IMG/VR virus record: IMGVR_UViG_3300048930_000242
Span: 89,341-153,340 of that record
Strand: one strand, 5' to 3'
DNA length: 64,000 nucleotides
Origin: a virus
A model generated the notes under the pieces. That model worked only from the letters and a program-made list of their open reading frames with translations. It was not told the DNA's origin and searched no databases. How positions within the stretch are numbered: the first letter of the stretch is position 1; every line of letters starts with the position of its first letter. A program made the translations under genes and the position numbers. Shown here piece by piece: positions 26,431 to 40,675 of this stretch.

Positions 26431-26444
26431 AGCTCCTCATAGTT

Positions 26445-26830
26445 AGACATCGTAAGAATTCTTGTCGGATTTTCTTCCCGCTTTGCGCAGGCTAGTGGAT
26501 GGCTACGAGACTGGTCGATCCGACAACCTCCAGCCAAGAAGGGTTCCTTTTGGTAAGAACCTCTATCTTAAGACCCTCTCTGTTCCGGTGGTAGCTAACC
26601 AACACAGTGGTAGAGAAAACCAACAGAGCGTTAACGATTGCTGCAAAACGAGTGGACACATACCACTACACGCCGGCTAGTTTGAATTGTTAGCCGGGCC
26701 AATGTCTCCAAGATGCCACTCTCGGAGATGTTCCTCAATTTGCGCCGTTCGCGGACTTGCAAATCCCAACGGCTTTCATTGGCTCTTAACCGTCTAGCTA
26801 TGTCTTGCAAAACACAACTAGAATGAACTT
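26445..26830 (-). ncRNA. unassigned structured ncRNA (~390 nt)
   Basis: no credible ORF; nested helices GCCAATG/CATTGGC, CCGGCTA/TAGCCGG, CTCTGTT/AACAGAG, TTGTCGGAT/ATCCGACAA. Confidence 0.55.
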
Positions 26831-26832
26831 TC

Positions 26833-26919
26833 TGGCGGAAAGCAGAGGTCCCGATCCCCAGCCCTTTCGGACCCATTCGCTTTCGAGGCGATGCCGACTC
26901 CCTGGTCGGTTTACTTTCC
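26833..26919 (-). tRNA. tRNA-Ser(CGA)
   Basis: cloverleaf, long V-arm, CCA; atypical T-loop ATCGGGA. Confidence 0.85.
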
Positions 26920-26923
26920 ATGT

Positions 26924-26998
26924 TGGTCGCGCTGGGCGGACTCGAACCGCCTACTTCGGCTTATGAGGCCGGTGTGTTTCCCGTTAAACCACAGCGCA
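26924..26998 (-). tRNA. tRNA-Met/Ile2(CAT)
   Basis: CTCATAA loop, GTTCGA, CCA. Confidence 0.85.
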
Positions 26999-27007
26999 TC
27001 AATTTTC

Positions 27008-27074
27008 GACTGGTCCCAGGTTCGACCTGGATCTCCTCTTAGAGGGAGGCGACTTTGCCTTAGTCCAACCAGTC
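27008..27074 (-). ncRNA. tRNA-like cloverleaf with CTA in the anticodon-equivalent loop, no CCA
   Basis: GACTGGT/ACCAGTC, GACT/AGTC, CTCC/GGAG, CCAGG/CCTGG stems. Confidence 0.55.
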
Positions 27075-27189
27075 TTGCGCACTCCGCTCCTAGCTAGGTC
27101 GCGATCTTAGCGTACGTTGGAGTGTCTACGTACGAGCATCTGGCTTTGGTGATGCCGCAACGGACCAGCCAGAGAATCCGTCTTGGATC

Positions 27190-27489
27190 TTATGCAGCCG
27201 CCTTCAACTTGGCGATTCCGAGCAACTGCCCAGCGTACTTCACCATTGCCTTCCTAGCGACCGCGAGCTGCTTCGGAGTCAAGAAGCCACGAGCCTTAAG
27301 CTGCTTCGAGAAGCTCGAAAGGATCGGAGCATCGACACCGTTGAAGCCAACACCGTTGTTCTTGTTGGTCGACTCGGACGCTTGTTCGTCCTGAGTCTGG
27401 TAGTCGAAGATTGCCAGAAGACCGCGGTACAGCCACCGGTCGGAGGCGATCAACTTCTCAACAATGAACTCTTTCGTCAAGGTCGTCAT
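27190..27489 (-). CDS. conserved hypothetical phage protein
   Basis: QTQDEQ...NGVGF..DA..LSS...KYAGQL. Confidence 0.75.
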   Translation of the reverse strand: MTTLTKEFIVEKLIASDRWLYRGLLAIFDYQTQDEQASESTNKNNGVGFNGVDAPILSSFSKQLKARGFLTPKQLAVARKAMVKYAGQLLGIAKLKAAA

Positions 27490-27493
27490 GGCT

Positions 27494-27718
27494 TCAGCCC
27501 TTGTTCTTGCGGATGGCGGATTCGATCACCGACTTCATCGAGCGGCATTTCCATTCCGGGATCATCGCCCAGACCATGCCTTTCTTCGTGTTGCGCTCGA
27601 CCTTGTACATGACGCATTCGAAACCACTTCCGTCGACGTAGTTCTGGCGGCAATAACGAGTTCCGCTGATCTCAACGATCGTTTCGGTCTGGTTCGGCTT
27701 TGTCATCATGATCTTCAT
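27494..27718 (-). CDS. hypothetical protein
   Basis: directly downstream of promoter copy. Confidence 0.55.
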   Translation of the reverse strand: MKIMMTKPNQTETIVEISGTRYCRQNYVDGSGFECVMYKVERNTKKGMVWAMIPEWKCRSMKSVIESAIRKNKG

Positions 27719-27735
27719 CTCCAGTTGTTAGAATG

Positions 27736-27780
27736 ATTCTAACACAACGGAGAGGCCTTGTCCAGCACTGAATTGTAAAC
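27736..27780 (-). promoter_or_regulatory. early-type promoter copy
   Basis: exact GTTTACAATTCAGTGCTGGACA, then N17-TAGAAT. Confidence 0.88.
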
Positions 27781-27969
27781 TTTACTGCAGAGAAGGATCA
27801 TCGTAGTCGAAGACGTTGATGAACCGATCCTTGTCTGGGAAGAGTCGATGCTCTTCCTTGAACGGAACGAAAAACATGTAGAAGGCATAGACGGCGTAGC
27901 CGATGAACACAAAGAGCATCAATGCCGACATCACGATCGTATCGAGGTACATTTCTCATCTCCGTAGAT

Positions 27970-28046
27970 TGGAGCTCGAGACGGGAATCGAACCCGCATC
28001 TTCCTGGCTGAGAACCAGGCATCCTAAGCCTTTAGACGACTCGAGC
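27970..28046 (-). tRNA. tRNA-Glu(CTC)
   Basis: cloverleaf, CCA. Confidence 0.9.
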
Positions 28047-28051
28047 GTTTC

Positions 28052-28124
28052 GGCGGTCTTCCGGATTCGAACCGGAGTCTCTGCTACCAAAGAGCAGTAT
28101 CCTAAGCCTCTAGACGAAGCCCGC
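28052..28124 (-). tRNA. tRNA-Gln(TTG), no encoded CCA
   Basis: CTTTGGT loop; one acceptor mismatch. Confidence 0.7.
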
Positions 28125-28135
28125 ACAGTAAAACT

Positions 28136-28209
28136 TGGTGGCCCTGTCAGGAATCGAACCTGCGTCTCCACCTTATCAGGGTGGAGCTCTACCATTGAGC
28201 TACAGGGCC
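28136..28209 (-). tRNA. tRNA-Ile(GAT)
   Basis: cloverleaf, CCA. Confidence 0.92.
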
Positions 28210-28500
28210 TTACTTTCTCATGTACTTAGCAAACAATTCGATGGTTCGCTGAGAGTGGATATGCCGACCGGACTCTTCATCCCAGACCTTTCGCCACTCA
28301 TCTTTCGCCCACCAACTCTTCCCATCTTTTGGACCACCCCAAGGGTTTCCGAACTTCTTCGGTTGCGGCATGTCTTCCTTTCCGATCAGAAGGAGCATCC
28401 TGACGAGCCTACGCTCTCTTCTGTGCTCAAACGCCTTGTACAACTTCTCTGATCCGCTAGCATTCCCAAAGATCGGGGTCTTCTTTCTTGATCTGCTCAT
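28210..28500 (-). CDS. basic hypothetical protein
   Basis: MSRSRKKTPI...GPKDGK...MRK conserved phage pattern. Confidence 0.7.
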   Translation of the reverse strand: MSRSRKKTPIFGNASGSEKLYKAFEHRRERRLVRMLLLIGKEDMPQPKKFGNPWGGPKDGKSWWAKDEWRKVWDEESGRHIHSQRTIELFAKYMRK

Positions 28501-28522
28501 GTGTCACCATAGGTTAGGGTAC

Positions 28523-28708
28523 CTACATGACTTTCACCTGAGTCTTCTTGACCTGTTCTTGGAGGTCGCGAAGCTCAGCAGCGAGCTTCGCGCGTTCGTT
28601 GTAGTCTTTCGGAGAAGCGTATGGGTCAAGATTGGCCAACTCAACACGGATCTCATCCATGCGAGCCTTCACTTTCTGAATCCTCTTGAACTCCAACAGC
28701 GTGTTCAC
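28523..28708 (-). CDS. small coiled-coil protein
   Basis: GGAG RBS. Confidence 0.5.
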   Translation of the reverse strand: MNTLLEFKRIQKVKARMDEIRVELANLDPYASPKDYNERAKLAAELRDLQEQVKKTQVKVM

Positions 28709-28720
28709 ATTGCTTCTCCG

Positions 28721-28975
28721 TTATGACTCCCTCGCCAAGGAGGTGAGTCGAAATGTCTTGATCGGTCGACCTGGAAGGTCCATCTTAACCTTGGCATGCA
28801 TCGTTCCACCGTGAGGCTTCTGTCGCTGATGGTCCCATTCTTGATCTTGAGGAGTCTTGAAGACCTCAAGAACAACTCCGGTCATGCCAGCCTTTGCGTA
28901 GTTGGCGTCCTCGTTACGAGAAATGTCTCGGAGGACAGACACAACATCTTTCGGTCGAATTCCGGGATGACTCAT
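28721..28975 (-). CDS. SH3-like hypothetical protein
   Basis: AAGGAG RBS before MSHPG. Confidence 0.55.
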   Translation of the reverse strand: MSHPGIRPKDVVSVLRDISRNEDANYAKAGMTGVVLEVFKTPQDQEWDHQRQKPHGGTMHAKVKMDLPGRPIKTFRLTSLARES

Positions 28976-29084
28976 GATCAACTCCTTCAAAATGGCGGAA
29001 GCAGGACGTCTCGATCGCCATACCCTTTCAGGTACCCAACGCTTTCCAGGCGTGGCCGACTCCCCGGTCGGTTCAGCTTCCTTA

Positions 29085-29357
29085 CTATATCTTTCCAAGC
29101 GCTTCCATCAGTGCGGATTCGTTCTTGTAGACTTCGGAGCCGGTTCGGCTGCTGCGCACCAGAATAAAGTTTCGATTGAAGACCTGGACAGTGCAATCAA
29201 GAGTTCGTGCTCGCCCAAAGGTCACGCATTCATACTTCCTTCCAGCAGTCGACTTTCCGGTTCCGCGGATCACACCATACGGAGCAGACAAAGTCGTGTT
29301 GCTCTTCGCCCATTCTTCAACTGCGTCGGCAATCCGGCAACTCTCGGACATCGCCAT
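29085..29357 (-). CDS. hypothetical protein
   Basis: GAGGAG RBS. Confidence 0.55.
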   Translation of the reverse strand: MAMSESCRIADAVEEWAKSNTTLSAPYGVIRGTGKSTAGRKYECVTFGRARTLDCTVQVFNRNFILVRSSRTGSEVYKNESALMEALGKI

Positions 29358-29359
29358 GA

Positions 29360-29716
29360 TCAGATCTCCTCTTTGAAGCCGATCGGAGCAACTCGCCACC
29401 AGCCGATGTTTCCACCGTTCGCGGCAATCAAGTGAATCCAATCGCCAACCATCATGCTTCGGTGTCCAAGAACGTCTCCCCAGAAGTCCTTCACCAACGG
29501 TTCAATGACATCGATCGCCTCATTGAAGTCTGGGTTGCGTTCACCGTTCTCGAAGAACTCTCCCTTGCTCCAAGAGCCTTGGATGTTCTGAGTCACTCGG
29601 TAGACATACTCAAGAGCATCTTCGATTCCGTGGTCTCCACCGAGGTCAACCACAGCCATCATAGTAGTAGTCGGCACTCCACCTTCCAGGTCGGCAAAGA
29701 AGACTTCAGCTTTCAT
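29360..29716 (-). CDS. hypothetical protein
   Basis: LEYVYRVTQNI.GSWS...RSMMVGD; promoter and AAGGAG RBS upstream. Confidence 0.7.
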   Translation of the reverse strand: MKAEVFFADLEGGVPTTTMMAVVDLGGDHGIEDALEYVYRVTQNIQGSWSKGEFFENGERNPDFNEAIDVIEPLVKDFWGDVLGHRSMMVGDWIHLIAANGGNIGWWRVAPIGFKEEI

Positions 29717-29790
29717 GATCTACTCCTTGAATGTGAGATCATTCTAACCTAACTCCGGAGCTTTGTCCAGCTCCGGAGTGTAACTCTTCG

Positions 29791-30198
29791 TTACGCCGCC
29801 TTCACAGCGGTCTTGATGCTCAGCTCCGGAGCCTTGAAGGTCTTACCGGTCTTCACGTCCTGGATGATGAACGGACGAGCGTAGCAGCGAGCATTGTAGC
29901 CGATGACCTTGTAGCCGCGGCCACCCATCATGAAGGTCTCGTTGACAGTGTCCTTGGTCAGATTGCCGAAGGAAGTGTACTGAAGCATCTTCTTCAGCGA
30001 GACCGACTCACGAGTGACCACTTCTCCGGTGGAGGCGATTGGGCAGAGATCGATACCGATCTGAGCCGTGCCGGTGAAGCTATTGTAGCGGAACTTCTTC
30101 ACCGAGAACTGGACGCCGAACTTCGTACCAACGGTCATCAGAGCGGCCTGGATGGCTTCGTCGATGGCTTTGGCTTGGGTGGCGGTCATTGCGGTCAT
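29791..30198 (-). CDS. hypothetical protein
   Basis: biased codons; promoter copy upstream. Confidence 0.7.
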   Translation of the reverse strand: MTAMTATQAKAIDEAIQAALMTVGTKFGVQFSVKKFRYNSFTGTAQIGIDLCPIASTGEVVTRESVSLKKMLQYTSFGNLTKDTVNETFMMGGRGYKVIGYNARCYARPFIIQDVKTGKTFKAPELSIKTAVKAA

Positions 30199-30234
30199 GA
30201 TGTTCTTCCTTACTGGTTGATTGACTGTAGGTGT

Positions 30235-30279
30235 ATAGTACAACATCCTAAGCGTCTTGTCCAGCACTGAATTGTAAAC
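30235..30279 (-). promoter_or_regulatory. early-type promoter copy
   Basis: exact 22-mer, then N17-TACTAT. Confidence 0.85.
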
Positions 30280-30360
30280 AATGTGCATCTTCCGGAGGGC
30301 AATCTAGGTGAAATCTGAGAGACTTCGCCGATCCAACTACTGGAACATGCTTCTAAATTC

Positions 30361-30432
30361 GCCAGAGTCATGGGATTCGAACCCAACCTGCCGCTCAACG
30401 CGGAGTGCCAACCAAATACACCTCACTCTGAC
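30361..30432 (-). ncRNA. tRNA-like RNA with 5-nt anticodon-equivalent loop, no CCA
   Basis: GTCAGAGT/ACTCTGGC stem, D-like arm, TGGG-TTCGAAT-CCCA T arm. Confidence 0.6.
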
Positions 30433-30499
30433 TCAACACCCGAGGTTCATGAGGCCTCGTGTCGGGCGATACCGTCGACTGTATGCCCAGTTGTGTTCT

Positions 30500-30575
30500 T
30501 GGCGCGCCTGGAGAGACTTGAACTCCCAACCTTCTCCTTAGGACGGAGCGGCTCTATCCGTTGAGCTACAGGCGC
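30500..30575 (-). tRNA. tRNA-Arg(CCT)
   Basis: cloverleaf, CCA. Confidence 0.9.
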
Positions 30576-30581
30576 ATATTT

Positions 30582-30656
30582 TGGAGGTCAGGGTGGGAGT
30601 CGAACCCACCTACAACGGGTTTGCAATCCGAGGCATAGCCGCTCTGCCACCTGACC
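30582..30656 (-). tRNA. tRNA-Cys(GCA)
   Basis: cloverleaf, U73, CCA. Confidence 0.9.
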
Positions 30657-30659
30657 GGA

Positions 30660-31040
30660 AATTCTTGCACCGTATCGGCGGTGCCACCCGGATAGACTTG
30701 GTCAGCCAACGTCTATCAGATCAGCCTCAAGCAGCCATAGCTACCGGAGCAAAGTACTCGTCATTTGCGGTTACTTTAGGTTTGGACTCTTTAGGACGGA
30801 CTTGCCGACTTAAGCAAGCTACCCGATCCACGCGAGCTACCATCTCGGATCGCCAACAGGTTAGTATGACATCAGTCGAAGCCAGGGCAGGCCCATCAAA
30901 AGCTCTTTAGGTGGCTCCGGGTCTTGATACGGAGCACTTACATCCCCTTTCGTACCTAAAGGGCTTATGGTGGACCTGGCGGGAATCGAACCCGCGTGTT
31001 GCTGCCTTTTCGCTGTCAGTTTACGATCATTCAAGCCCTA
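30660..31040 (-). ncRNA. ssrA: circularly permuted (two-piece) tmRNA
   Basis: acceptor piece ...GCGGGTTCGATTCCCGC-CAGGTCC-A-CCA (ends 30968) precedes coding piece GGGCCTGCCCTGGCTTCGAC (starts 30894); G3:U70; tag ORF 30768-30727 ANDEYFAPVAMAA*. Confidence 0.92.
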
Positions 31041-31066
31041 ATCGCGCGAACGACTTCGGGAATCCG

Positions 31067-31360
31067 TTACGTGTTCAACAAGTGGAGCATCGGAAGGTTA
31101 TTGATTCGGCGCTTATCATCGTAGCACGGCTCGAACACAAAGGCAACAACCTCTCCATGTTCTACGATGTCGCGGTCTTCGGCATGAAAGTACCGAACCT
31201 TGTGGTGCTTGCCTTGGATCTCAAGGCCGGTGTCGTAGGCGTCGTCATAAAGTCGACCGATGTTCCGCTCCGCCATCGACATCTCACCGATCAACAGATT
31301 GGAAGCCTTGTAGAAGGTGAACATCGAAATCGGCATGGTCTTCATAGCGAGCTTTGCCAT
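31067..31360 (-). CDS. hypothetical protein
   Basis: promoter copy and GGAG RBS. Confidence 0.65.
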   Translation of the reverse strand: MAKLAMKTMPISMFTFYKASNLLIGEMSMAERNIGRLYDDAYDTGLEIQGKHHKVRYFHAEDRDIVEHGEVVAFVFEPCYDDKRRINNLPMLHLLNT

Positions 31361-31385
31361 TTCTGTATCTCCAGTTGGTAGAACC

Positions 31386-31430
31386 ATTCTACCAACTTCC
31401 GACCCTCATGTCCAGCACTGAATTGTAAAC
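31386..31430 (-). promoter_or_regulatory. early-type promoter copy (upstream of ORF and tmRNA)
   Basis: exact 22-mer, then N17-TAGAAT. Confidence 0.88.
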
Positions 31431-31438
31431 TTTAGTCC

Positions 31439-31837
31439 TCAGCTCCAGGTCTTACCACCGTCGCGACTGATCACACGCGGCCCAGTGGTTCCGTTACGAC
31501 CACCGGAGGTCATGTTGTAGTCACAATGAAACCGAACCGAGAAGCCATCTTCTTTCAAGTAGTAGTCGACTTCGGCCTCGACAATCATCTTAGAGAAAAA
31601 GGCCGATAGAAACTTTGGAAGAAGTGCGGTCACATCGCCTTCGTAGTATTCAGATTGAACGTTGGCGCTTTGCTTTTGCTTAACTCGCTTCAGTGAGACG
31701 GCGCCAAACAGACCAACAAGTCCAGCCGCTTTCATTGCCGAAAGAATCTGCGATTCGTCAAGCAATGCTCCGGGAATTGCCTCTTTCTTCAGAGTCTTGC
31801 CGGATTCAACATTCTCAAAAATCTTTTCAATGGACAT
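31439..31837 (-). CDS. hypothetical protein
   Basis: ATAGATA motif upstream. Confidence 0.6.
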   Translation of the reverse strand: MSIEKIFENVESGKTLKKEAIPGALLDESQILSAMKAAGLVGLFGAVSLKRVKQKQSANVQSEYYEGDVTALLPKFLSAFFSKMIVEAEVDYYLKEDGFSVRFHCDYNMTSGGRNGTTGPRVISRDGGKTWS

Positions 31838-31971
31838 CTTATCTCTCTCTCTCTGTTAGTGAATTGCGAAGTCCATTATCTATTAGGCTGGTATGAGTTC
31901 CGAAGTCATACCGTATGAGCTTTGCTTCAGGCGCAAGCTCTTAAGCCACTCCGATCTTCGGAATCAGAAAT

Positions 31972-32045
31972 TGGTACCTCTGACAAGAATCGAACTTGTG
32001 TAGCTGGCATGTCATACCAGAGCTCTACCATTGAGCTACAGAGGC
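31972..32045 (-). tRNA. tRNA-Val(GAC)
   Basis: cloverleaf, CCA. Confidence 0.88.
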
Positions 32046-32051
32046 ATTGAA

Positions 32052-32645
32052 TCAAATCGCGACGACGATCTTCTTTCCAGGAGTGCCGAACATCGCCTTG
32101 GTGTGAAGCTCTCCTCCGATGTCTCTTCGATAGAAGTACTCGGAGAAGTAAGGATGCTGGACCAACTCTGGGTCGTCCGGTTCTACATCATGAAGAGTAT
32201 CAGGCGCCAACAGAGCGGCCGCTTGGTCTCGAGGAATAGCGTACTTCTTCATGAAGTCCAGGCCAACCTCTTTGATCATGAACCGGAGCATCGGTCCAGA
32301 AGTCTCGTTGAAAGCTCTTCCGAAGTCCTCTCTGATCTGCATCGCCAGAGCGGCTTTTCCTTCGGCGGTTCCATCGGTGAAGACGGCAACTCGCTTTCGA
32401 CCACCCTTGTCCTTGTAGAAAGCGCCTGAGACGATCGACTCTCCTCGGCGGATCAACTTCCACATTGGAAGGTTCCGAACCATGTCATCAGGAGAGCGGA
32501 ATCCAGAACCATGGATTCCGCCGATCTTCGCATAGGCCTTCTTCAGCTTCTCAAAGACCTCCTCAGCGTACTTCTCTCGGATCGCTCGATCGTCGGTAAA
32601 AAGGTTCAGAACCCTCTCGGCGAGGAACTGTTCAAAGAGTAGCAT
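32052..32645 (-). CDS. conserved hypothetical protein (possible head-packaged protein)
   Basis: MLLFEQFLAE N-terminus resembling T4-type capsid-targeting leaders; AYAKIGG motif. Confidence 0.7.
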   Translation of the reverse strand: MLLFEQFLAERVLNLFTDDRAIREKYAEEVFEKLKKAYAKIGGIHGSGFRSPDDMVRNLPMWKLIRRGESIVSGAFYKDKGGRKRVAVFTDGTAEGKAALAMQIREDFGRAFNETSGPMLRFMIKEVGLDFMKKYAIPRDQAAALLAPDTLHDVEPDDPELVQHPYFSEYFYRRDIGGELHTKAMFGTPGKKIVVAI

Positions 32646-32684
32646 GGTTGGTTTCCGTGTTGGTCAGAGTCCAACTATCTATTC

Positions 32685-33257
32685 TCAGTCACTCCGCTCC
32701 GCAAAGGAGTTCCGAAGCTCATTGACGAACTTCGGAAGCAGATGGACTCGCTGGAACCGGTGATGGCCTTTGTCATAGACCTCGACATCCATGTACTTCG
32801 TCAAGAGTTCGATGTTCGGCCGCTGGTCGATGATCTCGTCACCGAGTTCGATCAGAGCGACGCCGTGGACTCCAGAAGCGAACTTGAATGCTCCTTGGTA
32901 CATCGCTTCGTAGCGAGCCTTCAGGTGGAGAGGAGCATCAGGTCCGAAGTACCGATCAGGACGAAACGAAGGATTGATCAGAAGACACTTGCCGGAACTA
33001 GCGCCGGCCGCCGCCAGAGCCCAGAGAGCACCGAAAGAGTGTCCAACGAAGATGTCGTCCGGCCGAGTGCAGTCAAGGACAATGTCGACCATCTGGTCCG
33101 GCTGGCTGAAGTCCATGTTGATGCATGCCTTCGGAGCCTGAAGCGCCTTGTACTTCGAAGACTCATGAGATGAGTCAAGACCATGGAAGAAGAAATTCAC
33201 CGACTCAGGTCGGCTTTGGTTCGTTCCATAGTCAGTCACAAGAAGTCGGCTCATCAT
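32685..33257 (-). CDS. alpha/beta hydrolase (YqiA/YcfP-like esterase)
   Basis: HGLDSS, GHSFG nucleophile elbow, LINP, DE, GHHRF. Confidence 0.82.
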   Translation of the reverse strand: MMSRLLVTDYGTNQSRPESVNFFFHGLDSSHESSKYKALQAPKACINMDFSQPDQMVDIVLDCTRPDDIFVGHSFGALWALAAAGASSGKCLLINPSFRPDRYFGPDAPLHLKARYEAMYQGAFKFASGVHGVALIELGDEIIDQRPNIELLTKYMDVEVYDKGHHRFQRVHLLPKFVNELRNSFAERSD

Positions 33258-33270
33258 GATCTCCTAAAAG

Positions 33271-33360
33271 TGGCGGATGGCACAGGTATCGATCCCGATG
33301 GCTCTGTGGCCACGTATGGGTTAGCAACCCACCCTGACAACCCCGGTCAGTTTACCATCC
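33271..33360 (-). tRNA. tRNA-Ser(GCT)
   Basis: long V-arm, CCA, T-loop ATCGATA. Confidence 0.85.
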
Positions 33361-33363
33361 ATG

Positions 33364-33585
33364 TTAGTCGTAGTAGCCTTCTTCGAGAGCCCATCCGTAG
33401 AGAATCAGCTCGAGATCTTCAAGCGGCGCTTGATAGAACTCATTGGCGATCTCAAGATACGGATGGCCACCGGTCGGAGAAGTGAAGATCGCCAGATTAC
33501 CTGCGTAGAGGTAGCACTCGCGATCCGAAAAGTCGTCATTGTTAGTCGGCGACCGTGTGGCTTGGAACTCTGCGAAGGTCATCAT
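33364..33585 (-). CDS. hypothetical protein
   Basis: promoter plus AGGAG RBS. Confidence 0.65.
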   Translation of the reverse strand: MMTFAEFQATRSPTNNDDFSDRECYLYAGNLAIFTSPTGGHPYLEIANEFYQAPLEDLELILYGWALEEGYYD

Positions 33586-33611
33586 TGCTGCTTCTCCTAG
33601 ACTATGATAGA

Positions 33612-33656
33612 ATTCTACCACAACGGAGATGAGATGTACAGCACTGAATTGTAAAC
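33612..33656 (-). promoter_or_regulatory. early-type promoter copy
   Basis: TGTACA variant, N17-TAGAAT. Confidence 0.85.
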
Positions 33657-33757
33657 AATGTTGCTTCCGAAGGTTGGGACTGGATTACCCAACTTGCAAG
33701 AGTCCTTGGTAGAACTCGTTGCCACTCATTACTTACTTGCCGTAAGCCTTCGGAAAA

Positions 33758-33845
33758 TGGCGGAAAGCCGAGGTCTCGATCCCCAGTCCTCTCGGACCGA
33801 TTCGCTTTCAAGGCGGTCCCGGCGCGCCTGTCCGGTTGACTTTCC
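33758..33845 (-). tRNA. tRNA-Ser(TGA)
   Basis: long V-arm, CCA, T-loop ATCGAGA. Confidence 0.85.
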
Positions 33846-33849
33846 ATAT

Positions 33850-33937
33850 TGGTACTCTCGATGGGACTCGAACCCACAACCCAGTTTCCCAGGTACGGCA
33901 CCTCAAGCCGTTGCGTATGCCATTCCGCCACGAGAGC
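33850..33937 (-). tRNA. tRNA-Leu(GAG)
   Basis: class II cloverleaf, CCA. Confidence 0.9.
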
Positions 33938-33947
33938 ATTGAAACTT

Positions 33948-34022
33948 TGGTGCCCCAACAGAGAATCGAACTCCGATCTAACCCTTACCAAGGGCTTGTA
34001 CTAACCGTTGTACTATAGGGGC
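33948..34022 (-). tRNA. tRNA-Thr(GGT)
   Basis: cloverleaf, CCA. Confidence 0.88.
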
Positions 34023-34028
34023 GAAACT

Positions 34029-34105
34029 TGGAGCCGTCGGCGAGGACTTAAACCCGCACTATCCTTCTTACGAGGAAGGTTGCACTATCATTATGCTACG
34101 ACGGC
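34029..34105 (-). tRNA. tRNA-Thr(CGT)
   Basis: cloverleaf, CCA. Confidence 0.85.
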
Positions 34106-34207
34106 ATTGTAAATTACACGCACCGTCCAAAAGGCCCATTTCTTTTGAACTAGCTCTTCTTTCTTCATAGAGCTGGATGCTATTAGGCTAAATGCGTGCA
34201 ACTTGAT

Positions 34208-34283
34208 TGGCGCGGCTACCAGGACTCGAACCTGGACCCCATGGCTTCGTAGGCCAGGACATTCTCCATTGTGCTATAGCCGC
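34208..34283 (-). tRNA. tRNA-Arg(ACG)
   Basis: cloverleaf, CCA. Confidence 0.9.
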
Positions 34284-34378
34284 ATTGAACTAAAGAGTCG
34301 CCCTGGTTCTGAGCCAGCGTATAGAAGCTTGATTCTACAAGACATTCTATGGGTTCCGCACCAGCAACTCATTGAAAT

Positions 34379-34455
34379 TGGCGACCCCGGAGAGACTCGA
34401 ACTCCCAACATCCTGGTTCGAAGCCAGGTGCAACTATCCATTGTGCTACGGGGTC
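34379..34455 (-). tRNA. tRNA-Arg(TCG)
   Basis: cloverleaf, CCA. Confidence 0.9.
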
Positions 34456-34462
34456 ATGTGAT

Positions 34463-34536
34463 TGGTAGCGGGCCCTGAGTTGAACTAGGCTCTTCAGCGT
34501 ATGAAACTGACGAGGTCGCCGGACCTCCTACCCGCT
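34463..34536 (-). tRNA. tRNA-Met/Ile2(CAT), atypical D arm
   Basis: TTCATAC loop, CCA. Confidence 0.75.
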
Positions 34537-34549
34537 ATTGAATGTTTAG

Positions 34550-34625
34550 TGGTGTGACCGATGGGAATCGAACCCATATCGGAGCATTCACAGTGCTCCA
34601 CTCTGGCCATTGAGCTACGGCCACA
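34550..34625 (-). tRNA. tRNA-His(GTG)
   Basis: cloverleaf, CCA; U-1 and A73. Confidence 0.88.
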
Positions 34626-34639
34626 CCACTAAACACTTC

Positions 34640-35263
34640 TTAAATTTCAAATTCTTTGCATTCTCTAAGAGTTTCAATTATCTTGAGATTCGGAACAGTC
34701 TCGCGAATTACTTTCAACTTTTCCGCTTGAACTCTTACCGCATGCTGATTTTTAGGATCAAGATACAAATTGAACTTCGGAAGGTAGAAATCAGGAAAAT
34801 AATTATGAATCACGCCATCATTATCTTTCCATTCAACTGGACCAGGACGAATCCATTCTATTTCAAGAAAATCGAGTCTCTTAGCTAGTTCCAATTCCCA
34901 ACTAGAATCAAGAGTAACTCCGTTGTAGTCAATTGGATTCTTGCGCAATCTTCTGTGTTTTGATTTTAGCGCAGCTTCACTTATTTTCTTTTTCGATTCT
35001 TGCGTGTGCTTCTTTCCTGGCTTCCCTTTTAGGGCTGCGTTTTTGTCTTTGTACTTACCAAGTTTTGCGTTGGCTGATACTGTTCTCTTTCTCTTTTCTT
35101 CGGCTTCTTTCGAATGGACATTTTCCCAAATTCGACTTTTCAAATTTTCTACGTATTGGCTAATTTTAGGATTTGATTCACACCATCTAGAATGATTAGC
35201 CATCCATCCTTTTGGCTTATCAACAGTTTCGAAAATTTGGCCACAATGCTTACAGGTTGGCAT
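34640..35263 (-). mobile_element. putative homing endonuclease (Zn finger + NUMOD3 + PD-(D/E)XK-like domain)
   Basis: CKHC..H..WC, HTQESKKKIS, DSSWE...YFPDFYL...DPK; AT-rich insert in the tRNA array. Confidence 0.75.
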
Positions 35264-35283
35264 AACTCTCTTCTAATAGAAAT

Positions 35284-35363
35284 TGGCGCGCCTGGCAGGA
35301 TTCGAACCCGCGTGTATCCAGCTAACCTTTCAAGGAGTTAGAAGCTCCAGGGTATACAGGCGC
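35284..35363 (-). tRNA. atypical tRNA-Arg(TCT)-like RNA lacking a normal D arm
   Basis: GCGCCTG/CAGGCGC-G-CCA, T arm, GGAG-CTTCTAA-CTCC. Confidence 0.6.
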
Positions 35364-35574
35364 GTATTATCTATACGGAAGACAGTTACTTTATCCACTT
35401 AGGCGCGTGCCTAATCCATTCGAGCCACGAGGCGATTTGTATCAGAACCGACCAGACCAGAAGATCGAAACAATAAGAGCCGTAATCAAGACATCGCGAA
35501 TCATCTTCGCGTAGTGCAATCGAGCTTCAAGCTGCTTGTTCGTCATCATGTCTTCATCTCCATTTGTTAGAAGT

Positions 35575-35619
35575 ATTCTAACACCTTTCGATGCGCTTGT
35601 CCAGCACTGAATTGTAAAC
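35575..35619 (-). promoter_or_regulatory. early-type promoter copy
   Basis: exact 22-mer, then N17-TAGAAT. Confidence 0.88.
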
Positions 35620-35621
35620 TT

Positions 35622-35715
35622 TGGTACTCCTATCAGGACTCGAACCTGAACTGACCGCTAATCTGGCGGAAATCGGGTTTATAAGGCCCGCCGTGCTACC
35701 TTACACTATAGGAGC
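35622..35715 (-). tRNA. tRNA-Ile(TAT) with long variable arm
   Basis: CTTATAA loop; V-arm CCGC-CAGATTA-GCGG; CCA. Confidence 0.8.
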
Positions 35716-35719
35716 AAAG

Positions 35720-35797
35720 TGGTACCACGAGTGGGAATCGAACCCGACCTGATCTGTCTTGTAAGGACAGTGTTCTCACCAGAAAAGCGATCGTGGC
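35720..35797 (-). tRNA. tRNA-Val(TAC)
   Basis: cloverleaf, CCA. Confidence 0.85.
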
Positions 35798-35805
35798 ATT
35801 GAATT

Positions 35806-35876
35806 TGGCGGAAGCTATCGATGCGGGCTGCGCAACCCGATCCTCCCTTGCAAGAAAGATCTACACCGTAACCTCC
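35806..35876 (-). ncRNA. CCA-terminated non-cloverleaf RNA
   Basis: 8-bp GGAGGTTA/TAGCTTCC stem + G-CCA, two internal tetraloop hairpins. Confidence 0.6.
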
Positions 35877-36024
35877 ATTGAACTTGTTGCTTAGTAGTTC
35901 ATGCCTGATGGTGCAGACGCCATCACATTGTGATCTAGCCCCTGAACCAAACCTTTCGGCTACTCGCTTGACGCTTTGCCCATCGATATGATGAGGTTCT
36001 ACGTACATGAGCTACTAAGCATTC

Positions 36025-36101
36025 TGGTACCCTTAGTCGGATTCGAACCGACATCCACCGGATTTTAAGTCCAGCCGCGCTGCCAGTTAGCGTACAAGGG
36101 C
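36025..36101 (-). tRNA. tRNA-Leu(TAA), short variable loop
   Basis: CTTAAAA loop, CCA. Confidence 0.85.
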
Positions 36102-36106
36102 AAATC

Positions 36107-36310
36107 TTATTTCTTGATGATCATCTGGGCCAAGTCCTCAAGGCTATTGGCCGAGAACTTAGCTACTCCTTGGTCTCCATCCATCAACACGTCAATGGTA
36201 AACCCGTGCTGCCCTTTCTTGACACCGATGATAGTCGCTCTAGTGTTGCCTCGACGATCCCGAGTGTTCTTGAACCTAATGATCTTTCCGATCAGGTCGC
36301 TCTCGTCCAT
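36107..36310 (-). CDS. small hypothetical protein
   Basis: ORF between tRNAs. Confidence 0.5.
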   Translation of the reverse strand: MDESDLIGKIIRFKNTRDRRGNTRATIIGVKKGQHGFTIDVLMDGDQGVAKFSANSLEDLAQMIIKK

Positions 36311-36386
36311 TATCATCTCTGTTAGTTAGATGGCTATCTAAGAACCCTCTCGTGCCCTCTAAGGCAGAGGAGAAGGCCATGTTGAT

Positions 36387-36463
36387 TGGTACCCCAGAGG
36401 AGATTCGAACTCCCAACCACGAACTTTTGAGGATCGCCGCACTGCCAGTTAGCGTACCGGGGC
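36387..36463 (-). tRNA. tRNA-Leu(CAA), short variable loop
   Basis: CTCAAAA loop, CCA. Confidence 0.85.
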
Positions 36464-36471
36464 ATTGAATT

Positions 36472-36546
36472 TGGAGCGGGTAGTGGGAATCGAACCCACC
36501 TAATCTTCCTTGGCAAGGAAGCAATCAACCACTGACTCATACCCGC
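36472..36546 (-). tRNA. tRNA-Gly(GCC)
   Basis: cloverleaf, CCA. Confidence 0.9.
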
Positions 36547-36555
36547 ATAACTCAC

Positions 36556-36646
36556 TGGTGGGACGAGTGGGATTTGAACCCACGATGAGGATTTCTCCTG
36601 TCGGATTAAAAGTCCGATGTCTTCGACCAGACTTGACGACCGTCCC
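36556..36646 (-). tRNA. tRNA-Lys(TTT) with long variable arm
   Basis: CTTTTAA loop; V-arm AGGA-GAAA-TCCT; CCA. Confidence 0.85.
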
Positions 36647-36725
36647 GTATCTGTCACTATAGGAATTCATCTCCTATAGAGGCCTCTTCTCAAGAGGACT
36701 TCAGCCCGATTGACCGGGAACAAAA

Positions 36726-36800
36726 TGGTAGCGAGAGAGGGATTTGAACCCACACCGCCGGCTTATGAGGCCAGCAATCTGCCAGTTAATATATCTCGCG
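36726..36800 (-). tRNA. tRNA-Met(CAT), C1:U72 mismatch (initiator-like)
   Basis: CTCATAA loop, CCA. Confidence 0.8.
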
Positions 36801-36936
36801 TCAAACTTTATCGTACCTGCCACCCCGCAGACCTCAGCCGTAGGCTCTTCCTTAAGAAGCGTACCTATTTGCCCGGTAGGGACTTCGTACTTCGATTAGG
36901 ATTTCTCCGTTGAGCGGTACGAAGACACGATAAACT

Positions 36937-37012
36937 TGGCGCCTCCTCCAGGTTTCGAACCTGACTCTCCTGCTTTTCAAGCAGGCGCTTTCACCAGATT
37001 AGCTTAGAAGGC
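36937..37012 (-). tRNA. tRNA-Phe(GAA)
   Basis: cloverleaf, CCA. Confidence 0.88.
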
Positions 37013-37088
37013 ATTGTGATAGTTGGCTCCTTGGTTTGAGGATTTGGCGACTTCCATCGTCGTCATTAGCCTTAAGGAGCTCGTTGAT

Positions 37089-37164
37089 TGGCAGCGAAGG
37101 TTGGTTTCGATCCAACTGCAATACTTTCAGAGAGTATCGGCTCAGCCACTTGCTCTTCTTCGCT
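37089..37164 (-). tRNA. tRNA-Gln(CTG)
   Basis: CTCTGAA loop, CCA, T-loop ATCGAAA. Confidence 0.78.
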
Positions 37165-37170
37165 ATTGTT

Positions 37171-37246
37171 TGGCAGCCCAGTACGGGATCGAACCGTATC
37201 CTCAGCGCTTCAAAGGCGCGGATGCAAGCCATTACACCACTGGGCA
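37171..37246 (-). tRNA. tRNA-Gln(TTG)
   Basis: cloverleaf, CCA. Confidence 0.85.
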
Positions 37247-37255
37247 ACAATTGTT

Positions 37256-37332
37256 TGGCTCCTGAGGTACGACTCGAACGTACAGCCTCCGAATTAACAG
37301 TCCGGTGAATCTACCATTGATCCTACTCAGGA
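37256..37332 (-). tRNA. tRNA-Asn(GTT)
   Basis: cloverleaf, CCA. Confidence 0.88.
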
Positions 37333-37341
37333 ATTGAATTT

Positions 37342-37432
37342 TGGTGCGCGCAGATGGACTCGAACCACCACAGACTTATTTGGATGCGGCTGCTTTACAG
37401 GCAGCGGAGCTCAACCAGTGCTCAGTACGCGC
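37342..37432 (-). tRNA. tRNA-Tyr(GTA)
   Basis: class II cloverleaf, CCA. Confidence 0.88.
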
Positions 37433-37441
37433 GTTGAAACT

Positions 37442-37517
37442 TGGTCTCTGAGAGAGGACTCGAACCTCCAACCCCTGCGCCCCAAACGCAAAGCTCTACC
37501 AATTGAGCTACTCAGAG
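37442..37517 (-). tRNA. tRNA-Pro(TGG)
   Basis: cloverleaf, CCA. Confidence 0.9.
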
Positions 37518-37589
37518 AGAAAACTTTACAAGTAGATGGTTCATTCTACCACCAAACCATCTGCTTGTACAGCTTTGAAGTGTAACAAG

Positions 37590-38490
37590 GTAGCCTGAGA
37601 ATACGGCTTCCGGTGGTTGCCTTTCGGAGCATTATCACCATGTTGCGACACGGCGTTCTCTCCTTATCCACCTCCAGCAAGGAGGTATCAACCGTAGCGG
37701 CCTTTTTAGACTGGTGGCGTTTCCAGTGTCGTCATGTTCTATTCCAGGCCTTGTCTACCGCCTACCTTGCGACGAGCAGTACGGGCTGCTACACCCTACG
37801 TGCGACTCTTCCTGAACAACCTTTGACTTTGCGATTCTTAGGTTGACTTGATTCACCCGAAGGTGTCAAGTATTACGCTACTTTCAAACATGACCGGCAA
37901 CGACTTTGCGTTTTAGTTGATGTGGGATTTGAACCGCACGCCAATTCCTTTAGATGGAATTGCTCTACCAATGAGCTAATCGTAACCTCCTGAAGACGAG
38001 CGTTGCCGTGACTTCATGGACTTTTGGTCCACAAAATACCACCCGCCTAGTATCCTTTCGACCGCTAAGTCTAGTCAGATCAGTTGTACCTTCTCGGCTC
38101 TTGCGAAGCCGAAACCTTACAACCTGGTGAACCGCTCTTGGCCGCTAAACCTCGAACTTTGATCACCTTCATGTTCAGCTTTGCTACTCGGTCTGTTTCG
38201 CTATGATATGCGAGTGCGAATCGCCAGGAGTCTTTCTACCAGTTGGCCTTGGACTCTTTTCTCATCAAACCTTCGCGGCTATCTCCGTCACCGAAGAGGC
38301 GCTTGTGGCGCCAGCGTTGCATGATTGTTTAGATGGACCTTTCGGCGGTGGTCGGGGAGGCCTTCCACCTTTCTGCACCTTGCGGTACAACATCCTTTCA
38401 TCTTTTCACTTTCGATCAAGATGTGCTAAACCAGACGGATTTCTCCGTTTCGTCCTTTTTGAAGGGAGGACTCTTCAGTAGTTCCCTTTG
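37590..38490 (-). ncRNA. large structured ncRNA, GOLLD-like
   Basis: ~900 nt without a credible ORF inside a phage tRNA array; many GNRA/UUCG hairpins; embedded tRNA-like domain; 3' end ...CCGAAAGG...GTATTCTCAGGC. Confidence 0.7.
37914..37987 (-). tRNA. degenerate tRNA-like domain, anticodon CTA, embedded in the large ncRNA
   Basis: TAGCTCATTGGTAGAGC D arm, AATTCC-ATCTAAA-GGAATT, GGTTCAAATCC; bulged acceptor, no CCA. Confidence 0.65.
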
Positions 38491-38495
38491 AAGCT

Positions 38496-38570
38496 TGGCG
38501 CGCCGCGTAGGACTCGAACCCACATCTTTCGGCTTTGGAGGCCGACATCTTGCCATTAGACGAACGACGC
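38496..38570 (-). tRNA. tRNA-Trp(CCA)
   Basis: cloverleaf, CCA. Confidence 0.88.
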
Positions 38571-38576
38571 AACGAG

Positions 38577-38650
38577 TGGCGGGATGGAAGGGAATCGAAC
38601 CCTCATTCTCTCGTAGACAGCGAGGCATCTTACCACTAGATGACCACCCC
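38577..38650 (-). tRNA. tRNA-Asp(GTC)
   Basis: cloverleaf, CCA. Confidence 0.88.
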
Positions 38651-38742
38651 TTAAACTTGGACTGCGGTATCGGCGCAGCCTCCGGCGGAATTTTACCGCT
38701 CGGTCCGCTTTGGTCTTCGACCTGCGCTTCCGCTTTCCTCTC

Positions 38743-38819
38743 TGGTGGACACATATGGGGATCGAACCCATGACATTCTGCTTGCAAGGCAGACGCTCTC
38801 CCAGCTGAGCTAATGGCCC
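38743..38819 (-). tRNA. tRNA-Ala(TGC)
   Basis: cloverleaf, CCA. Confidence 0.88.
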
Positions 38820-38901
38820 GTAAAATGGTGTACGCTATCGCGGCACGGTCGCCGGATTTCTACCGGTGGTTAGGACTCTAATCATAACCATTGTCGATTT
38901 A

Positions 38902-38976
38902 TGGTGGACCAACGGGGAATCGAACCCCGAACTCAAGCTTGCAAGGCTAGTGTGTTCCCAGTTATACCATCGGCCC
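38902..38976 (-). tRNA. tRNA-Ala(TGC), second copy
   Basis: cloverleaf, G3:U70, CCA. Confidence 0.85.
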
Positions 38977-39329
38977 GTAAATTTCGGTTCACGGACTGAC
39001 CAGGCTCATGTCCCGCGTCCAAACCGTCTCTAGGCTGCTACCGCCATTGAGCTCCACGTGGTGAAATTTGCTCTTGAGCCTCTATCAGAGCTACCCGACG
39101 GCTGCGGCCATTTGCTGGTCCGAGAAGCGTGCGCCGCCAAGATCATTGGTTACGTCTTCGCTTCCGTTCTTTGTCGGTTTCTACATTTGTAATTCGTCCC
39201 TTTATGGCGGACGGCCTCCAGATGGTTCTATCAAATGGCTAGAACCAACAACATGCCCAATTGGCGCTCCGTCTAGCCGGAACAACGCTGAAGGTTCTTG
39301 ATTGACCAGTACCTACACCTGTCATTGTT

Positions 39330-39405
39330 TGGTACACCTAGAAGGACTCGAACCCTCATTCCCCGGTAATCGGCCGGACGTCCTACGCAATTGGACGATA
39401 GGTGC
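39330..39405 (-). tRNA. tRNA with GAT anticodon and atypical loop (CCGATTA)
   Basis: intact cloverleaf and CCA, but C33 and U37. Confidence 0.7.
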
Positions 39406-39411
39406 ATTGTT

Positions 39412-39485
39412 TGGAGCGGGTAACGAGGATCGAACTCGTCTCTCAAGCTTGGAAGGCTAGGGCACAACCACTATACCATACCCGC
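39412..39485 (-). tRNA. tRNA-Gly(TCC)
   Basis: cloverleaf, CCA. Confidence 0.9.
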
Positions 39486-39496
39486 ATTTGTAACTT

Positions 39497-39572
39497 TGGA
39501 GCCCTAAGACGGATTTGAACCGCCATCTGAGTCCTTACAAGGGACCTATGTTACCGTTAACACCATCAGGGC
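39497..39572 (-). tRNA. tRNA-Thr(TGT)
   Basis: cloverleaf, CCA. Confidence 0.88.
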
Positions 39573-40211
39573 TTATTTTCTTCCGCTTCTCCATCCTTCT
39601 GGAATCTCTTGATCTTTCTTAATCTTCTTATTCAGGATTCCATCTGTAATCCATTTAGTTCCGAATTGTGAATTTTTAGAACCTTCTCGTGCACCTTTTA
39701 ATGTTTGACTAATTTTTCTTTTAGTTTCATCGGAATGTGTTTTTCCATTCCAATCAAATCGTTCATCACCTAAAAAGTATTTTCCATAAATCTTAAACCG
39801 AGTTTTCGCTGTGTTTGCGGCTCTAAGACTTCGACGAATTGGATCAATTTCGTCGTTTTTACTAATCTTTTCATTTCCAATAAGAGAAAGATTTTTTCTC
39901 TTATGTGAATCATACGATTGATTCGCAAAATCCCAACCACCTTCTCCGCCAATCTTTAAATTGTAACATTTGCCGGAATCGAGAACTTCTTCAGTCACCA
40001 ATTCTTTCTCTTTTGAGAAAGCCTCTTCTTTCGTTTCAAAGGAGTAAAGAACTTCTTTCACAAAATTCTCTACTCCGTACTTCTTGATTGCGTACTTAAG
40101 CCTCTTACCTGAACCCAGATAGTCATCATTGGGGTCAGTGGTCTTATGTACGCCTATATAGAACATTCCGTTAATCTTATTGGTTGTCCTATAGACTGTA
40201 TAGACTAACAT
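39573..40211 (-). mobile_element. GIY-YIG homing endonuclease with NUMOD3
   Basis: VYRTTN...YIGVH...YLGSG...YNLKIGGEGG, HSDETKRKIS. Confidence 0.9.
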
Positions 40212-40252
40212 ATGGTTCCTTTGGAAGGTTCACGATATGTTATCTATACTGA

Positions 40253-40328
40253 GGGTGGGTTGCCGAGGACTCGAACCTCGTTCTCACCGCTTAAGAGGCG
40301 GGACTCTAACCTGTTGAGTTAGCAAGGC
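40253..40328 (-). pseudogene. tRNA-Lys(CTT) with broken acceptor stem
   Basis: intact D/AC/T arms; two C:C mismatches in acceptor; ends ACCC. Confidence 0.65.
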
Positions 40329-40423
40329 GTAACTTTTCTCATTCTTGAAACTTCTCGGCATTACTAGGCACAACTCCGTAGAGAATTACGCACCGTTTCA
40401 AACCAAGAAGCCTCAAGGATGAG

Positions 40424-40497
40424 GGACCGGGGTTGGATTTGAACCAACGTCCTTCGGCACATAAGCCGCTGCTCTTCCAGACTGAGCTACCCGATCC
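40424..40497 (-). pseudogene. tRNA-like gene with 6-nt anticodon loop, no CCA
   Basis: TAGCTCAG..GG.AGAGC D arm, GGTTCAAATCC, loop TTATGT. Confidence 0.6.
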
Positions 40498-40675
40498 ATT
40501 GCGAGTCGGCGGGACCATTTAAGGACACAACCGACTTCTTTGTGTTACATCTCTAAGTTTTGTGTACCACTGAAGAGCTTGTTGCTTGAAGCGGAGGCAT
40601 TTCGCTTTCCGTCATCTGTTGAAACTATTCTACCACCAATTCTTCGCGATGTCCAGCAGAGAATTGTAACAATTT

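Follow-up and report, generated by a model that had tools for sequence, protein, structure and literature searches.

The transfer RNA (tRNA) cluster of bacteriophage T4 includes genes for two small RNAs, RNA C and RNA D, the roles of which are unknown (PMC3014915). In the T4 record, these genes, rnaC ('species 1') and rnaD ('species 2'), are annotated directly after tRNA-Arg and are 119-139 nucleotides (nt) in length. In the fold of RNA C, a canonical T arm lies beside an acceptor-like closing stem that encloses a large insert; RNA D has an ACCA end. The GOLLD-type RNAs are larger, exceeding 800 nt, and their 5' half is less conserved (PMC12286853). Here we analysed a window of 64,000 nt (positions 89,341 to 153,340) of the IMG/VR virus record IMGVR_UViG_3300048930_000242, in which a tRNA island is interspersed with structured RNA elements. 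The window constitutes the last 64 kilobases (kb) of this 153,340-base pair (bp) record, which has direct terminal repeats and is estimated to be complete. Taken together, the data make it likely that the island consists of at least three polycistronic RNA operons with early promoters, which carry about 45 tRNAs, a transfer-messenger RNA (tmRNA), a GOLLD RNA headed by a hammerhead ribozyme and at least 10 distinct small structured RNA genes of the T4 RNA C and RNA D kind.

Like RNA C and RNA D, the elements lie inside a T4-type tRNA cluster, on the strand of the tRNAs, with linkers of only a few bases. The architecture of RNA C, namely, a T arm and a closing stem with a large insert, is that of a 144-nt element, denoted TL-1 (30356-30499), and of the family of a 76-nt element (34295-34370), whereas the ACCA end of RNA D is comparable to the ends of two rod-shaped elements of 71 nt (35806-35876) and 59 nt (37024-37082). 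The differences from T4 concern number and setting: at least 10 elements of several unrelated families are present here versus two in T4, and they are interleaved with the GOLLD RNA, the hammerhead and the tmRNA. By analogy, the elements of the window thus appear to be of the same kind as RNA C and RNA D, but far more numerous and diverse. The first-pass annotation of this stretch, made from the sequence alone, had presented the gaps between the tRNAs as the best candidate for an undescribed system; this part of its proposal does not hold, because the tRNA cluster of T4 itself has two such RNAs (PMC3014915).

Small structured RNAs between the tRNA genes

With default settings, ARAGORN called 34 tRNAs and a permuted tmRNA, every one on the minus strand; in total, the island contains about 45 tRNAs, the permuted tmRNA and the GOLLD RNA on this strand, and all structured elements share it. 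The description of the gaps in the first-pass annotation was largely accurate. Its coordinates for the structured elements were right to a few bases, a terminal stem closes 10 of the 14 gaps longer than 55 nt and free of open reading frames (ORFs) in the region 33600-40700, and two gaps (35806-35876 and 37024-37082) end in GCCA. The linkers also resemble those of the tRNAs, with an xCAAT/G junction found before 11 of 41 tRNAs and before positions 34370, 35876 and 39323. A scan of the region 26000-41000 with 4227 Rfam families at E <= 10 yielded no match for the listed examples, and none of the ten short ones matched the tRNA model RF00005 even at this E value (threshold 29 bits). Most of the 12 examples therefore stand as structured RNAs without an Rfam family, whereas 27007-27074 and 30361-30432 are better described as aberrant or tRNA-like molecules; the latter is indeed structured, but represents the 3' tRNA-like domain of the longer TL-1 RNA.

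The mean folding z-score of 13 elements, calculated against dinucleotide shuffles, was -2.89. The corresponding means were -0.28 in 39 coding windows matched for size and taken from this genome (Mann-Whitney p = 4e-6) and -1.78 in 12 bona fide tRNAs. A terminal stem closes almost every element, and many are four-way junctions. No paralogy among the elements was detected within the island beyond the promoter repeat described below, and the Rfam scan (E <= 10) revealed no match to a ribosomal RNA family that would point to mimicry of a ribosomal RNA site.

Relatives of the island were found in Logan, ENA and NCBI assemblies through homologs of two island-embedded ORFs. They fall into lineage B (L243/L244, a 20-kb stretch of an 84.6-kb contig binned into a Rhodoferax metagenome-assembled genome) and lineage C (L001-L003 and L245-L250). 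Both lineages have the same kind of island, with a partly shuffled gene order, and their ORFs are about 67-70% identical to those of the window at the DNA level; overall identity is about 70%. Megablast and blastn searches against GenBank phages returned single tRNAs or nothing, IMG/VR yielded no relative in scans seeded with proteins or based on motifs, and the lineage B contig was the sole result of a GTDB scan.

Eight of the 12 examples are retained in the two related lineages at syntenic positions with 80-90% identity, the syntenic homologs as a whole ranging from 80 to 96%. The conserved elements are retained at least as well as true tRNAs and better than the neighbouring ORFs. Furthermore, compensatory base pairs were found in five families. 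TL-1 (four sequences, 39 pairs) has 15, a number reached by none of 500 shuffles and compared with 1-5 when the partners were slid; the 71-nt rod has 7 among 28 pairs (2 of 500 shuffles; 0-1 in slid controls), a 79-nt branched RNA 4 among 16 in the comparison with lineage C, a 124-nt multi-branch RNA 3 among 36, with 99% of cells paired and none in slid controls, and the 59-nt rod 2 among 18. Across families, the slid-partner controls gave 0-5 such pairs, and the conserved G-U pairs are consistent with no strand but the minus strand. The elements are thus real and maintained by selection at the RNA level. Structural covariation, which the first-pass annotation had named as the test separating discrete RNA genes from spacers or decaying tRNA pseudogenes, is present in 8 of its 12 examples and speaks for genes. 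Three of the listed elements, 34114-34201, the interior of 35889-36020 and 38826-38900, have little or no counterpart in the relatives, so that the argument for their structure comes from folding energy.

Three main forms stand out among the elements (Table 1): tRNA-like chimeras without an anticodon (TL-1, the 76-nt RNA and a 68-nt RNA at 27007-27074), CCA-ending rods (the 71-nt and 59-nt RNAs) and terminally closed multi-branch RNAs (the 124-nt RNA, the 79-nt branched RNA and others). The chimeras keep the acceptor/T-arm 'top half' of a tRNA. An anticodon arm is absent from the folds of TL-1, the 76-nt RNA and both rods, and no anticodon-loop look-alike was found among the elements. TL-1 is composed of two domains, a separate 68-nt 5' domain with a three-way junction and a tRNA-like domain. 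The latter begins with an acceptor-like stem and a D-like hairpin in which a 17-nt motif is invariant; a short, variable hairpin then occupies the site of the anticodon arm, and a canonical T arm follows. A covariance model of TL-1 scored 145 bits in the window and 143-166 bits in lineages B and C, the latter of which has a second copy; two metagenomic phage contigs that are unrelated scored 38-45 bits, and a further group of contigs gave partial matches of 16-19 bits. In these other contigs, too, the matches are located between tRNAs. When the 17-nt motif was searched in metagenomes and IMG/VR, most matches were due to chance or unrelated, and a T arm was present at only 7 loci. The 76-nt RNA is a shortened form, by deletion, of an RNA that measures 143 nt in lineages B and C, and the lineage C homolog of the 68-nt RNA in L001 retains the stems but differs in the loops.

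Two described types of RNA resemble the chimeras. YrlA (RF02553), a Y RNA-like tRNA mimic of bacteria and phages that is bound by Ro/Rsr, is likewise a non-decoding RNA with a tRNA-like module including a T arm. The two ends of YrlA pair in the stem to which Ro binds, and its acceptor end is closed, whereas in the window elements the RNA ends form the acceptor-like stem. A Y RNA acting with Ro was rejected as a candidate: no TROVE domain is encoded in the complete phage genome, and the only RF02553 match (20 bits) falls inside ordinary tRNAs. In the MALAT1-mascRNA type of RNA, a eukaryotic tRNA-like handle recruits RNase P, which generates the 3' end of the upstream RNA. The tRNA-like domain of TL-1 similarly lies immediately 3' of an independent structured domain, although this precedent is eukaryotic and cleavage in TL-1 is hypothetical.

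The 71-nt rod is formed by a 13-bp coaxial stem and two hairpins, with no anticodon, D arm or T arm, and its end (GGA...UCC, followed by G and CCA) copies the acceptor end and discriminator of the tRNA-Ser genes of the phage. Lineages B and C have the 59-nt rod in the same place, with 84-89% identity; its flanks are invariant and compensatory change occurs in the central hairpin. Among the multi-branch RNAs, the 124-nt RNA varies in 15 columns: 6 belong to the three compensatory pairs, 3 change in a wobble-compatible way and 1 disrupts pairing.

Table 1. Structured RNAs and promoters of the tRNA island (positions in the 64,000-nt window; z, folding z-score; B and C, related lineages)
Feature	Position	Strand	Remarks
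TL-1, 144-nt two-domain RNA	30356..30499	-	Directly after tRNA-Arg(CCU)
76-nt tRNA-like RNA, 7-bp acceptor stem, T-arm-like hairpin	34295..34370	-	Covariation in acceptor, D-like and T stems (three lineages)
68-nt tRNA-shaped RNA, non-canonical loops, no CCA	27007..27074	-	Relaxed ARAGORN only; z -3.4
71-nt RNA ending in GCCA	35806..35876	-	Present in B and C; z -3.3
59-nt rod-shaped RNA ending in GCCA	37024..37082	-	Between tRNA-Gln(CUG) and tRNA-Phe; z -2.5
124-nt multi-branch RNA	36808..36931	-	After tRNA-Phe; 90% identical to lineage C
79-nt branched RNA	38664..38742	-	Between tRNA-Ala and tRNA-Asp; 81% identical to L245:918-997
132-nt RNA, 15-bp closing stem	35889..36020	-	z -5.0; termini conserved, interior replaced in lineage C
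88-nt four-way-junction RNA	34114..34201	-	Lineage-specific; z -3.1; no homolog in B or C
98-nt four-way-junction RNA	33660..33757	-	After tRNA-Ser(UGA); z -4.9; no homolog in B or C; not in first-pass annotation
79-nt cloverleaf-shaped element	36647..36725	-	Lineage-specific; z -1.6; no homolog in B or C
82-nt element	38820..38901	-	Between two tRNA-Ala genes; z -1.5
84-nt long-stalk hairpin RNA, 4+12-bp stem	40339..40422	-	z -5.3
Conserved structured element	31885..31971	-	After tRNA-Val(GAC); 86-87% identical in B and C; 24 pairs, 3 compensatory; not in first-pass annotation
353-nt non-coding block	38977..39329	-	Between tRNA-Ile(GAU) and tRNA-Ala(UGC); several conserved hairpin modules
~390-nt non-coding block	26445..26830	-	After tRNA-Ser(CGA); weak resemblance to lineage C equivalent
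Full GOLLD RNA, about 840 nt	37592..38433	-	Variable 5' half 38050-38433; Rfam-modelled 3' half 37592-38049
Type I hammerhead ribozyme	38428..38484	-	Complete core, stems I-III; CUGANGA...GAAA...UH
Early promoter TGGACA-17-TG-TAGAAT	40627..40655	-	Heads operon 1: odd tRNA, hairpin RNA, tRNAs, 353-nt block, hammerhead, GOLLD
Early promoter copies heading next units	37543-37571, 35575-35603, 33612-33640	-	Repeat family

GOLLD RNA and a predicted hammerhead ribozyme

The modelled 3' half of the GOLLD RNA matches RF02032 over the full model with 200.3 bits, compared with a gathering cut-off of 150, and contains an embedded tRNA-like segment at 37919-37981. Both halves are 81% identical to L243:7726-8592 of lineage B, the 446-nt gap before the modelled half (38050-38495) over 411 nt. 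This gap, the identity of which to lineage B equals that of the modelled half, is the 5' half of GOLLD itself, with the hammerhead at its start; it fits the less conserved 5' half described for such RNAs. With its embedded tRNA-like segment and its location in a tRNA island, the GOLLD RNA of the window corresponds to what has been described in the literature, and its position beside the tRNAs, which the first-pass annotation had counted towards novelty, is an association already known (PMC12286853). The small elements of the island, in contrast, are not GOLLD.

The hammerhead scores 24.1 bits with the Rfam model Hammerhead_1, below the gathering cut-off of 34 bits. Its lineage B counterpart at the same site (L243:7700-7757) is also sub-threshold, with 23.4 and 19 bits, and has a perfect consensus core, and stems I and II covary between the phage of the window and lineage B. 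Cleavage is predicted after GUC, between 38434 and 38433, which would make the 5' end of GOLLD and free it from the upstream tRNA-Trp transcript. In the literature, we found no published link between GOLLD and a hammerhead and no hammerhead at the GOLLD 5' border; the predicted ribozyme would provide a concrete processing link for this RNA.

A hammerhead was also considered for the 124-nt multi-branch RNA and the 79-nt cloverleaf-shaped element and was rejected, the core being absent by eye. Three copies of the hairpin GGAGAAAUCC, which has a GAAA tetraloop, are present on the minus strand: at 38436-38445 as stem III of the hammerhead, at about 36897-36906 in the 124-nt RNA and at about 36594-36603 in the variable region of tRNA-Lys(UUU).

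Transcription, processing and possible roles

Near-identical minus-strand promoters (TGGACA or TGTACA, 17 nt, TAGAAT, most preceded by TG) are located at 40655, 37571, 35603, 33640, 31414, 29769 and 27764, and no convincing minus-strand terminator was seen between the promoters of the island. This layout would place the elements inside polycistronic tRNA operons. A repeat of ~25-45 nt (GTTTACAATTCAGTGCTG...), present on the minus strand at 41372, 35622, 33661, 31434, 30284 and 27784, bears the early promoter and is conserved in lineages B and C as well.

Strand, promoters and linkers are common to the elements and the tRNAs, and terminators are absent between them, which makes release of the elements by the tRNA-processing machinery, as envisaged in the first-pass annotation, plausible. 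In the scheme that we favour, the elements would be transcribed together with the tRNAs and excised by the same machinery, with RNase P cutting at xCAAU/G junctions and acceptor-like stems, 3' trimming proceeding down to the closing stem or CCA, and the hammerhead releasing GOLLD. The products might then accumulate as stable small RNAs, like T4 RNA C and RNA D. The least bad guess as to their activity is that they would engage proteins that handle the ends or shape of tRNAs, namely, processing, CCA or aminoacylation factors, or defence toxins. No CCA-adding enzyme was found to be encoded by the phage; therefore, any CCA repair would depend on the host.

Several points weigh against this reading. 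Only 2-4 distinct sequences represent each family, and the structures were derived from the same alignments in which the pairs were then counted, which inflates the apparent covariation. The relatives lack homologs of the 88-nt and 98-nt four-way-junction RNAs, the 79-nt cloverleaf-shaped element and the interior of the 132-nt RNA. A search of the T4 locus with rnaC and rnaD (L252), made with the covariance model of TL-1 only, gave no match at E <= 1, so that what connects the elements to T4 is architecture and position rather than homology. Finally, we infer co-transcription with the tRNAs, excision and stable accumulation from the layout of promoters and terminators.

The elements could instead be cis-acting modules for processing or insulation, which recruit RNase P, RNase III or RNase E to set the ends of tRNAs, GOLLD and mRNAs and have no function in trans. 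Several features are in line with such modules: the 84-nt hairpin resembles an RNase III site, the 5' end of GOLLD would be set by the predicted hammerhead, the tRNA-like domain of TL-1 lies 3' of a separate domain, as in RNase P-dependent 3'-end formation, and the element at 31885-31971 precedes an ORF. However, most tRNAs in the array are only 4-12 nt apart and need no modules of this type, and the invariant loops and single-stranded stretches retained across lineages, for example, in the 59-nt rod, are unexpected for a mere spacer or cleavage site. We therefore regard this explanation as unlikely, albeit not negligible.

The first-pass annotation had also suggested that the RNAs serve as decoys for host anticodon nucleases, an idea for which nothing specific speaks, since mimics of an anticodon arm are absent from the set. 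Moved from anticodon loops to acceptor ends, it becomes the proposal of decoys or sponges for tRNA-directed defence or stress proteins of the host: the rods and the acceptor/T-arm mimics would absorb enzymes cleaving or modifying the ends or bodies of tRNAs and would thereby shield the phage tRNAs. Retention of exactly the top half of a tRNA or the CCA end, without an anticodon, in several elements would suit this role, as would the copy of the tRNA-Ser acceptor end and discriminator in the 71-nt rod, the fast turnover of the island between lineages, which is reminiscent of counter-defence loci, and the Rnl1- and Rnl2-like RNA ligases of the phage. Nevertheless, the anticodon stem-loop is mimicked by none of the elements, no defence gene or target was identified, and the 124-nt RNA, the 79-nt branched RNA and the 353-nt block are not tRNA-like at all; accordingly, decoys seem a rather doubtful explanation. 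It appears still less probable that the CCA-tailed rods and anticodon-less chimeras form a diversified kit of non-decoding tRNA-end mimics, which, once released by tRNA processing, would titrate host enzymes or toxins acting on the 3' ends or shape of tRNAs, possibly together with the GOLLD cage of the same operon, and would thereby protect phage translation. Decaying tRNA genes or neutral spacers with leftover stems, to which the cloverleaf shape of some elements called by relaxed ARAGORN, the lineage specificity of four elements and the origin of the 76-nt RNA by deletion might point, are very improbable, given that the conserved elements outlast the ORFs and equal or exceed true tRNAs in conservation, that substitutions are concentrated in compensatory or wobble-compatible pairs, that the Rfam tRNA model finds nothing in the elements at E <= 10 and that decay is contradicted for eight conserved families.

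If the elements are small RNA genes co-transcribed with the tRNAs, as we favour, RNAs like RNA C and RNA D would not be a T4 oddity but a large, fast-turning-over class of conserved genes in phage tRNA operons, and TL-1, at least, is spread across unrelated uncultured phages. To our knowledge, no function has been found for RNA C and RNA D in fifty years; the families, boundaries and structures defined here are now available for testing.

Other elements, atypical tRNAs and genes of the island

Several further elements of Table 1 show partial conservation. In the 84-nt hairpin, comparison with the lineage B homolog (L243:3684-3770) revealed 24 pairs, 2 of them compensatory, and 8 one-sided wobble-compatible changes; it is possibly an RNase III-type processing site or a stable RNA. 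The element at 31885-31971 may be the leader of a 132-amino-acid ORF. From the 82-nt element, only a CCGG-7nt-CCGG hairpin recurs in lineage C. The slot of the 353-nt block is occupied by blocks of 353, 372 and 379 nt in the three lineages, with 75-92% identity over parts; the corresponding alignment (A6) contains 54 pairs, 17 of which changed on both sides, but is poor, and the block has no Rfam match. The possibility that the block is a second tmRNA or a tmRNA paralogue was rejected, as only a 28-nt hairpin is in common and indels break any reading frame. This hairpin module (39261-39288, minus strand), at the start of the block, recurs in lineages B and C at the 3' end of their permuted tmRNA (L001:5284-5311 and L243:18829-18856), whereas the tmRNA of the window has a different hairpin at this place.

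Relaxed ARAGORN settings yielded nine further minus-strand calls inside the island: four tRNA-Ser, tRNA-Gln(CUG) at 37089-37164, tRNA-Tyr at 37346-37433, an Arg-like tRNA at 35284-35363, and the segments 27007-27074 and 30361-30436. The four tRNA-Ser genes and the gaps at 37089-37164 and 37346-37433 are real, atypical tRNAs missed by default detection; 37346-37432 also has a weak tRNA-Sec match (34.5 bits). The tRNA-Ser genes (26833-26919, 28993-29081, 33271-33360 and 33758-33845, minus strand) have non-standard T loops and were missed both by default ARAGORN and by Rfam at the gathering score; without them, the phage would seem to lack tRNA-Ser. The minus-strand Arg-like tRNA has a rearranged body and a score of 29 bits, equal to the Rfam threshold, and is 96% identical to L243:12397-12473, which places its conservation above that of almost all else in the island. 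Another minus-strand tRNA, at 40423-40496 (Rfam 51 bits), has a 6-nt anticodon loop (ARAGORN anticodon 'at') and a 3' end of CTCA rather than CCA, with a lineage C counterpart at L245:2063-2136.

In lineage B, a tRNA with the anticodon UUA, a putative ochre suppressor (L243:10207-10278; Rfam 39 bits), directly follows the homolog of a 69-amino-acid ORF. Lineages B and C also share an 88-nt element after tRNA-Phe (L243:9152-9239 and L245:2701-2788), which is absent in the window and in which a canonical T-arm hairpin comes first, within a UUUUGG/CCAAAA closing stem.

The gene content identifies the phage as T4-like: it encodes topoisomerase II subunits, the Rnl1- and Rnl2-like RNA ligases, a DNA ligase, thymidylate synthase, ribonucleotide reductase and peptide deformylase. 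Two homing-endonuclease-like ORFs (39573-40211 and 34640-35263, minus strand) are located inside the tRNA array; the former resembles the GIY-YIG Seg family. The arrangement is comparable to that of segB in the T4 tRNA cluster. The insertion sites of such ORFs vary among the three lineages.

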